A DNA stretch of 28,247 nt from Terriglobales bacterium (GCA_038253455.1 JBBSHD010000001.1:1-28247); one strand, 5' to 3'. Positions 863 through 2,301 are shown, numbered from the stretch's first letter. Notes: generated from the letters alone by a model not told the origin. Translations and numbers: made by a program.

Positions 863-875
863 CCGGAAGTTTGAC
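863..875. repeat. Left target-site duplication CCGGAAGTTTGAC
   Basis: Identical to 2265-2277. Confidence 0.9.
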
Positions 876-909
876 GGGGATAGCTATACCATGGGGAAAC
901 TGCTACACC
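875..909. repeat. Left terminal inverted repeat
   Basis: Inverted copy at 2229-2264. Confidence 0.9.
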
Positions 910-1178
910 TCTTGAGATCGCGAGCTCAAGACTTCAACTCCTCTTATCTAGACCAATCCCTTTTTTTAAACCATGATCCGCGAAGCACGTTTACGCGCAA
1001 GAAGGCCCGCGCGATGAAGATGCTGTACGTTCTTGTAGTAGTAACATTCAGTATCTATAGGTGCGGCGGATGCATAGGCTTTCCGCGTTGATTCATGATG
1101 TTCACGTTTAAGAAATGGAACTACTGTCTAAAGAAGGTAATGGCTTGGCTCGCTAGCCTAAGCGACTCAAATGCAGAA

Positions 1179-2076
1179 ATGAACCGCAAGAGAACAAGGA
1201 TCGTCATCGGTATTTTGGTCACGTTCGTCGGTCTTCCGTTGGCATTCGTCGTAACGGCCATGGTGTGGTTTTCCTATGGATCGTCACTTCGGCTTTGACG
1301 CGCAAATACCTGCTCTACGTACCGAAGACCTATGATCGGTCCAAGCCAACGTCCTTGGTCATCAGCCTGCACCCCGCAGGCACAGGGGCGACGACTGAAA
1401 TGGAAATAAGTGGATGGAACGAGGCGGCGGATGAGCACGGTTTCATCGTCGTCTAGCCGGCTGGAGACGGCTTTCCCAGAGGCTGGCACATGGGACCGCG
1501 CAGCTTGGGAGTGAACATAAGATTCATTTCAGGTTTGATCGACAAGCTGGAAAGCGAGTACAACATCGACCCAAACCGCATCTATGCTGACGGAATGTCG
1601 ATCGGTGGAGGGGCACCTTCGCGTTGTGGTGCAAACTGTCCGATCGAATCGCGGCGGTCGGCGCCGTGGCGGCTGCACAAATGCTGGATTGGGATCAGTG
1701 TGGAGATTCCAGACCTATGCCGACGGTGGCTTTCCATGGAACGGCTGACCGACTCACCCCTTACCTGGGCGGTTCATCGCCGATCGCCCCCGGGACGTTT
1801 CCAAACATCAGGGATTGGACGGCCCGCATGGCGCAACGAAACCAATGTAAGGGCGAACCAAGCGAAACTCGTATCACCGCGAGCGTCGGCCGCCTTGCCT
1901 ATACGAACTGCGCGGAGAATGCTGACGTGATCCTCTATACCGTTGAGGGCGGTGGCCATACCTGGTCAGGCGGCAAACCTCTTCCGAAATGGATAGTTGG
2001 GCGCAGGACCCGCGAGATCAGCGCCACGAGCCTGATGTGGGATTTCTATGGTCAGCATCCGCTTAGACGGAAGTGA
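1179..2076 (+). pseudogene. Disrupted PHB-depolymerase/LpqC-like alpha/beta hydrolase (esterase) with an N-terminal membrane anchor
   Basis: Fragments join into one protein: MNRKRTRIVIGILV (TM), frameshift at ~1275-1290, RKYLLYVP..LVISLHPAG..GWNEAADEHGFIVV, in-frame TAG at 1454-1456 where Y of 'VYP' is expected, IDPNRIYADGMSIGGG (nucleophile Ser), 1-bp frameshift at ~1613, ..FHGTAD (Asp)..GGGHTW (His). Confidence 0.85.
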
Positions 2077-2115
2077 CCTGGGAGGTCGCTGGGGTGTCGC
2101 TATCACGATTCAGAG

Positions 2116-2226
2116 TTAAACATCGTCTTGAAGGGGTAGACCTATTCCAGCCAATACTCCTATTACCACGACAGCTAATCCAAGCGCGAAACCACCGATT
2201 GTTTTCGAACCACTTTCCGCGAGCAT
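2116..2226 (-). CDS. Possible 36-aa hydrophobic peptide or captured gene fragment inside the element
   Basis: Manual translation: MLAESGSKTIGGFALGLAVVVIGVLAGIGLPLQDDV*. One clean TM-like segment; the ATG lies immediately inside the right TIR. Confidence 0.3.
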   Translation of the reverse strand: MLAESGSKTIGGFALGLAVVVIGVLAGIGLPLQDDV

Positions 2227-2228
2227 GG

Positions 2229-2264
2229 GGTGTAGCAGTTTTCCCCATCGTATAGCTATCCCCG
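2229..2264. repeat. Right terminal inverted repeat
   Basis: Inverted copy of 875-909. Confidence 0.9.
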
Positions 2265-2277
2265 CCGGAAGTTTGAC
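2265..2277. repeat. Right target-site duplication CCGGAAGTTTGAC
   Basis: Identical to 863-875. Confidence 0.9.
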
Positions 2278-2301
2278 CCTCCGCAAAGGCTACACTAGAC
2301 T
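2273..2301 (+). promoter_or_regulatory. Putative sigma70 promoter of thrS
   Basis: TTGACC (2273-2278), 17-nt spacer, TAGACT (2296-2301). Confidence 0.7.

Follow-up and report, generated by a model that had tools for sequence, protein, structure and literature searches.

How did a 1,388-bp segment with inverted repeats at both ends, in which no transposase, integrase or Cas1 can be recognized, come to lie ahead of thrS in a Terriglobales bacterium, and to which group of mobile elements do its ends belong? The segment (about 1.4 kb; positions 876-2263) was analyzed within a stretch of 28,247 nucleotides (GCA_038253455.1, JBBSHD010000001.1:1-28247), here called the window. An initial annotation had proposed a non-autonomous, cargo-carrying element derived from a casposon, and this assignment is supported because the same family of terminal inverted repeats (TIRs), a target site duplication (TSD) of 14 bp and a GTCAA(A)C target belong to Cas1+HTH/PolB elements in related genomes. 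Casposons are rare and have been studied mostly in archaea, and Cas1, the integrase of CRISPR spacers, is thought to derive from the integrase of casposons. Judged from sequence comparison, the window element is very probably a casposon derivative that lost or never had the genes for Cas1 and PolB, i.e., a natural 'mini-casposon'.

The left TIR (876-909, plus strand) comprises 34 nt with the tip GGGGATAGCTATAC and fits the TIR profile of a Terriglobia casposon family, and the right TIR (2229-2263, minus strand) comprises 35 nt. Aligned as GGGGATAGCTATAC[C/G]ATGGGG(A)AAACTGCTACACC, the two agree except for one mismatch and a single-base indel, as the initial annotation had described for a segment of about 1.39 kb, and the termini of the element read GGGG...CCCC. 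The sequence CCGGAAGTTTGAC occurs exactly at both 863-875 and 2265-2277, and from it a target duplication of 12-13 bp had been deduced. This length did not hold: we read the TSD as 14 bp because relatives (G797, G726, G561) show an unambiguous 14-bp TSD. The left copy (862-875) is TCCGGAAGTTTGAC and the right copy (2264-2277) GCCGGAAGTTTGAC, i.e., [T/G]CCGGAAGTTTGAC, identical at 13 of 14 positions with the mismatch at the first base only; the right copy begins with the 'extra G' at 2264. The opposite strand of the right copy, GTCAAACTTCCGGC, carries the GTCAAAC target motif of the family. A 12-bp TSD with C...G termini, entertained in view of another cassette (L020), was dropped, since G797, G726 and G561 together with the spacers in G709 and G681 fix the length at 14 bp.

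The segment 876-2263 is a confirmed true insertion. Upstream of thrS, where a search for an empty site had been suggested, a genome of the same genus (G001, flanks 93-94% identical) has both flanks abutting around one GCCGGAAGTTTGAC with the insert absent, and contigs of two other metagenomes (X2 and X3, from a G001-like relative) show the empty site in the same form with a single target copy. At the mismatched base of the TSD, G001 has a G in its empty site, as in the right copy. Separate Logan contigs built from the source run also span both insert junctions, but they go back to the reads used for the assembly and are thus not independent evidence; the source genome (G000) is a fragmented metagenome-assembled genome, 82% complete and in 390 contigs. 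The G+C content is 54% in the element vs. 59% in the window. Directly left of the left TSD copy, 12-14 nt (848-861) differ from G001 at about seven positions, the flanks being otherwise about 94% identical, and this stretch beside the insertion may mark a hot spot of local change.

The interior begins with a subterminal stretch of lower G+C content (910-1094; about 46% over 900-1120), which contains only small unsupported open reading frames and shows no likeness to casposon interiors. It is followed by the cargo, which had been recognized from the sequence as an esterase pseudogene (1095-2076, plus strand) and belongs to the PHB-depolymerase family. It matches NCBIfam NF050058 (E 9.5e-43, just below the cut-off) and also TIGR01840, and its relatives in the PDB are feruloyl and PHB-depolymerase-family esterases; Pfam gave no name to the mended protein. 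An in-frame TAG (1454-1456) and two frameshifts (near 1296 and 1613) break the gene, which retains an N-terminal transmembrane segment and the GMSIG serine motif, and the best intact homologs are just 72-73% identical. The initial annotation had reported no transposase, integrase or Cas1, and the searches agree: Pfam revealed none of these in the element, and tblastn with casposase and PolB returned nothing. Two features of casposon membership are therefore unmet, Cas1 (absent from the element and from anywhere in the 82% complete G000) and PolB (absent from the element); no trace of the cas1 or polB genes or of the subterminal regions of casposons was detected in it, the TIRs alone matching. 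Because it lacks Cas1, while relatives sharing its TIR family have Cas1, we regard the window element as a casposon derivative and not as an autonomous member. A second copy of the cassette was found nowhere in the sequences searched, so its movement as a mini-element is not demonstrated.

A search with the TIRs for other copies and for a full-length partner, as had been proposed, succeeded in part: relatives with a Cas1 casposase were found (G797, G002, G769), and BLAST, fuzzy regular expressions and an nhmmer profile gave no further TIR copies in the source genome. An 18/19 match to the TIR on contig C313 of that genome lies within coding sequence and was rejected as chance. An exact scan with the 20-mer tip gave one match in JGI metagenome contigs (L020) and none in genome contigs or viral contigs, and a scan with the inner half of the TIR gave five matches, of which the only real relative is from an Acidobacteriota genome (L025, G492). 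With a degenerate TIR pattern, we then scanned the taxonomic family of the source (about 400 genomes), the named members of which are labeled Acidobacteriia/Terriglobia: 27 of 401 genomes, the source genome among them, had a match, and the reversed control pattern matched in none of the same set (one unpublished genome, G003, is counted in the tallies only and supports no claim). The window TIRs are 86-91% identical to TIRs that bound or adjoin Cas1/PolB elements (G797, G530, G769, G681), and the same pattern and profile detect both, which meets the feature of casposon-homologous TIRs. An autonomous casposon with the exact TIR subtype of the window and L020 was not found, the nearest being those 86-91% identical.

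Other ends stand alone. Those in G333 and G492 are considered solo ends because no partner end occurs within 15-30 kb, and for the casposons of G002, G769 and G530, no second end was detected within 19 kb with the 14-nt flank as probe. Directly inside the solo end of G333 lies a gene for a protein of 1010 aa (P0001; L033:6653-9685) without a match in Pfam, NCBIfam or PADLOC, the N-terminus of which resembles a PD-(D/E)xK nuclease (GGGDQGADFE...ACSLEK); it has about 80 homologs across phyla, one of them adjoining a type III R-M system (L042). P0001 was ruled out as a novel transposase, its homologs being low-copy, without TIRs nearby, and in one case in a type III R-M island, and it is a candidate for an uncharacterized defence gene. 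About 400 bp of flank of the same solo end (L033:9786-10184) are duplicated some 4 kb downstream (L033:13821-14219) and partly on contig C5, so that the G333 genome has more than one copy of the very segment that bears the target.

The most complete partner is an element of 11,572 bp in G797, the only full-length one having both ends and a TSD. Its two identical 35-bp TIRs face each other and are 86-89% identical to the window TIRs, and its TSD, GTCAAACGACGCAC, is exactly 14 bp and not extendable on either side. It encodes a Cas1 of 523 aa (PF01867, E 1.7e-41) with a C-terminal HTH, which passes the generic cas1 model alone and no CRISPR-subtype model, and which matches the structure of the M. 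mazei casposase (6OPM); no CRISPR array was found near the element. Its PolB (962 aa) shows all Exo I-III and Pol A-C motifs and only a weak Pfam match to PF03175 (a protein-primed-type model), and an NTPase and an FRG/PDC-S15 protein are also encoded. In G002 and G769, Cas1 (51-61% identical) and PolB adjoin ends of the same TIR family, and in G530, G681, G668 and G703 fragments of PolB or Cas1 adjoin ends. A metagenome contig (L094:773-12800; JGI 3300041025, Ga0435228_000148), which ends inside the element, carries a casposon whose Cas1 shares 86% identity with that of G797; a PolB-sized gene (957 aa) is also present, and the anti-phage cargo consists of Shedu (SduA_C) and CBASS (CD-NTase + Cap15 pair) genes. 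More than 100 clusters of this large casposase clade were listed (about 510 aa, 62-89% identity, mostly from soil metagenomes), all of them automatically named CRISPR Cas1, and many such calls of a '~510-aa CRISPR-associated Cas1' in soil metagenomes are probably casposases, not CRISPR genes. By these comparisons, the ends, the 14-bp TSD and the GTCAA(A)C-type target of the window element are those of a casposon family common among the Terriglobia.

The footprint of the family is uniform where it can be read. Exact 14-bp TSDs occur in G797, G726, G561, G557 and L020, and the window element meets the TSD feature of casposons (about 14-15 bp) with 14 bp, 13 of them identical. In two genomes, two ends stand back to back with exactly 14 bp between them (L074:9808-9891 and L075:9895-9978 in G709; L076:19406-19489 in G681), the spacer in G709 being GTCAAACCGGGCCG; these are tandem elements with one common target copy, in a repeat-insert-repeat layout. 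Among 39 distinct ends, GTCAA stands at exactly -14 to -10 in 18 and its complement at -5 to -1 in 7, and just 3 have GTCAA at another offset; the feature of a sequence-specific target, with positions conserved on one side of the TSD, is fulfilled as well. The solo ends are strongly biased in orientation, with the GTCAA side distal to the tip in 21 and proximal in 7, and one particular element end seems to survive decay preferentially.

In the window, this target coincides with a putative promoter. The start codon of thrS lies at 2330, with the element 53 bp upstream, and a promoter-like arrangement (TTGACC-17 nt-TAGACT; 2273-2301, plus strand), read from the sequence with its function inferred, places the putative -35 box inside the duplicated target, so that the right TSD copy keeps the box in place. 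The L094 casposon abuts GCGGACGGTTTGAC|CC...TAGACT...ATG-thrS, and the counterpart of this junction in the window is GCCGGAAGTTTGAC|CC...TAGACT...ATG-thrS. The two elements used the same thrS-promoter site independently. A contig of run X4, in which the right TIR is followed by ACCCGGGATTTGAC|CC, represents another site of the same type.

The window element is not the only short one. L020 is an element of 1.58 kb with perfect TIRs and a perfect 14-bp TSD, without cas1 or polB; its ends are identical to the right window TIR over 35 of 35 positions, its flanking repeat is unlike that of the window, and its cargo, a secreted retropepsin-like protease and a fragment of a multicopper oxidase, is unrelated to the window cargo. 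It lies in an array, because decayed TIR-like tips flank it. In the plasmid collection, just multicopper-oxidase fragments of this cargo were recovered. The same locus contains a separate MITE-like structure (L020:2190-2320) whose inverted arms of 25 bp (GAGTGTAATTGATTCCATAACAATG) are separated by about 80 bp, and a related short motif near L020:305-325. Further TIR-bounded elements with a 14-bp TSD and without cas1 or polB were identified in G561 (2.8 kb), G726 (3.8 kb) and G557 (3.9 kb). The one in G726 (L088:503-4342; exact 14-bp TSD) has two IS110-family transposase genes inside, which are IS110 elements nested in a very small casposon derivative.

In the mechanism that we propose, a Cas1+HTH casposase would bind both TIRs, whose 3'-OH ends (...TATCCCC-3') would attack the two strands of a target that starts with GTCAAAC, at positions 14 bp apart, and gap repair would duplicate the 14 bp. 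Integration through the TIR 3' ends is inferred, without biochemistry, from their ...TCCCC sequence and from what has been published for the A. boonei casposase. The right TSD copy would keep the thrS -35 box and hence an intact promoter, and the site may be tolerated because the duplicated target includes this box. The enzyme might have been supplied in trans by an autonomous casposon, or the element might have arrived complete and been gutted later; we lean, if only slightly, towards supply in trans. The cargo esterase would have arrived with the element and decayed since, and what is left today is most likely an immobile fossil.

Gutting in place would mean that a full autonomous casposon with esterase cargo inserted before thrS and lost its core of about 10 kb (cas1, polB) by internal deletion, the 1.4-kb form never having transposed. 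We take this history seriously and still expect it to be wrong somewhat more often than right. A decay series exists in the relatives, with PolB or Cas1 fragments in G530, G668, G681 and G703 and with solo ends being common, and the cargo of casposons varies (Shedu and CBASS in L094, FRG/PDC-S15 in G797); the single copy of the cassette and the low identity of its best esterase homologs (72-73%) also fit, and one TSD mismatch, the TIR differences and three gene-breaking lesions make the element old enough. However, no remnant of cas1, polB or the casposon subterminal regions is left beside the matching TIRs, and in at least four independent short elements both TIRs and the TSD persist around unrelated cargo without casposon genes. 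The perfect TIRs and TSD of L020 imply a recent insertion, yet it lacks genes for casposition, which suggests movement in trans, and one TIR subtype (35/35) surrounds different cargo in L020 and in the window. Mobilization in trans is also consistent with artificial mini-casposons, which have been mobilized in vitro and in vivo (PMC5137440, PMC10359463).

Two other explanations would dispense with a casposon. Mobile insertion cassettes (MICs) and Tn3-derived miniature elements (TIMEs) are known classes of transposase-less, TIR-bounded cassettes, and Tn3-family inverted repeats (about 38 bp) begin with GGGG and are associated with a 5-bp TSD; IS4-group elements make duplications of 10-13 bp, and IS4-family ends typically begin with CA, not GGGG. 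A DDE-dependent cassette, whether a MIC of the IS4/IS231 type or a TIME, could account for ends beginning with GGGG or for a long duplication. Against this, the TSD measures 14 bp wherever it can be read unambiguously, and the window ends have no 5-bp repeat next to them, so that the exclusion of Tn3 by the initial annotation stands; its IS4 alternative gains no support, as about 30 loci revealed no IS4-type transposase either between these TIRs or next to them. DDE_Tnp_Tn3 had no match at any locus examined, no DDE transposase lies between these TIRs at any locus apart from the two nested IS110 elements in G726, and wherever a recombinase is present it is Cas1, which leaves a DDE origin very improbable. 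The fragmented state of the source assembly could in principle have produced a chimera, or the repeats could be a matter of chance; this is hardly credible when a 34/35-bp TIR and a direct repeat identical at 13 of 14 positions exactly bound a segment that is missing from G001, X2 and X3, and when the TIR family recurs in 27 genomes with no control matches.

The casposon reading, with supply in trans, can be extended into a tentative hypothesis, for which we would claim slightly less than an even chance: a large Terriglobia casposon family using GTCAAAC-type sites, including the thrS -35 box, may have spawned cargo cassettes without Cas1 and PolB that were mobilized in trans and stacked head-to-tail with single 14-bp target copies between them (G709, G681 and the L020 array). 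If true, such arrays, with short foreign inserts set between copies of a repeated target, would be present-day counterparts of the intermediate proposed between casposons and CRISPR. To our knowledge, non-autonomous passengers exist in every well-studied transposon superfamily, and a Cas1-less insert with casposon ends suggests that casposons, like other transposons, may yield cargo passengers dependent on the enzyme of another element; if the window element was mobilized in trans, casposases act in trans in nature. Casposon ends can apparently ferry arbitrary genes, including the defence genes on full-length relatives, and a defined TIR, target and casposase would form an experimentally tractable set for the casposon-to-CRISPR scenario. 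In the searchable literature, we found no paper on natural Cas1-less cargo casposons, only on artificial mini-casposons, and none linking casposons to Acidobacteria/Terriglobia, which is not proof of absence in either case. A natural Cas1-less cargo casposon would here sit in a common soil phylum, in a family with a clear target motif and tandem arrays spaced by 14 bp.

Among published casposons, a resemblance to the terminus of the Aciduliprofundum boonei element had been noted in the initial annotation, and the published sequence confirms it: the LE26r oligonucleotide reads GGGGATATATATACATCCCC..., 12 of its first 14 nt are identical to the window tip, and both 3' ends read ...TCCCC. In a test anchored at the tip, positions 5-14 agree in 8 of 10 (P = 0.003). 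Alignments of the whole TIR to published casposon TIRs, also proposed in that annotation, were no better than shuffles; the resemblance of the tips is therefore weak on its own, and the classification rests on the physical link of the TIR family to Cas1/PolB elements. The A. boonei casposase requires in vitro only the 3' TCCCC motif, and casposases integrate artificial mini-casposons carrying no casposon parts but the TIRs, in vitro and in vivo, with a TSD of 14-15 bp and a need for 3' TCCCC (PMC5137440, PMC6614799, PMC10359463). MetMaz-C1 and NitAL212-C1 have TIRs of 31-37 bp starting with GGG(G) and a 14-bp direct repeat, MetArv-C1 and MetFor-C1 have 14-bp direct repeats and GGG(G) tips with much longer TIRs (134 and 91 bp), and the values listed for AciBoo-C1 are a 40-bp TIR and a 15-bp direct repeat. 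In M. mazei, conserved first TSD positions, solo TIRs and tandem insertions have been described, and bacterial casposons target intergenic regions.

Within this range, the window element is most readily compared with families 2 and 3. NitAL212-C1 of family 3 (Nitrosomonas sp. AL212; Krupovic et al. 2014, PMC4046053) shares with it a 35-bp TIR starting with GGGG, an inner A-run and TACAC, a 14-bp direct repeat and an intergenic insertion, and the Cas1 of AceAut-C1 (family 3, 521 aa) is similar in length to the Cas1 with HTH of the Terriglobia relatives (about 520 aa); by eye, in a machine-read supplement and without a phylogeny, the Terriglobia casposase resembles the AceAut-C1 rows. In contrast to the casposons of family 3, the window element lacks cas1, polB and every other casposon gene and measures only 1.4 kb. 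Family 2 (AciBoo-C1 of A. boonei; MetMaz-C1 of Methanosarcina mazei) is alike in the GGGGATA... tip, the 3' TCCCC, TIRs of 36-37 bp, a TSD of 14-15 bp with conserved first positions, and the occurrence of solo TIRs and of tandem insertions at a single site; however, it is archaeal, targets tRNA genes or other motifs (CGCA), and its sequence identity to the window TIR is confined to the first 14 nt. MIC231 and the Tn3-derived TIMEs are likewise transposase-less, TIR-bounded and sometimes cargo-carrying passengers of an autonomous element, but they depend on DDE transposases with a TSD of 5 bp (Tn3) or 10-12 bp (IS231), whereas the partner here is Cas1 and the TSD 14 bp. Artificial mini-casposons come closest in design, with two TIRs around unrelated DNA, the casposase supplied in trans and a TSD of about 14-15 bp (PMC5137440, PMC10359463); they are, however, laboratory constructs around a marker gene (in vitro, and in vivo in M. 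mazei), whereas the window element is natural, carries a natural cargo and resides in a bacterium.
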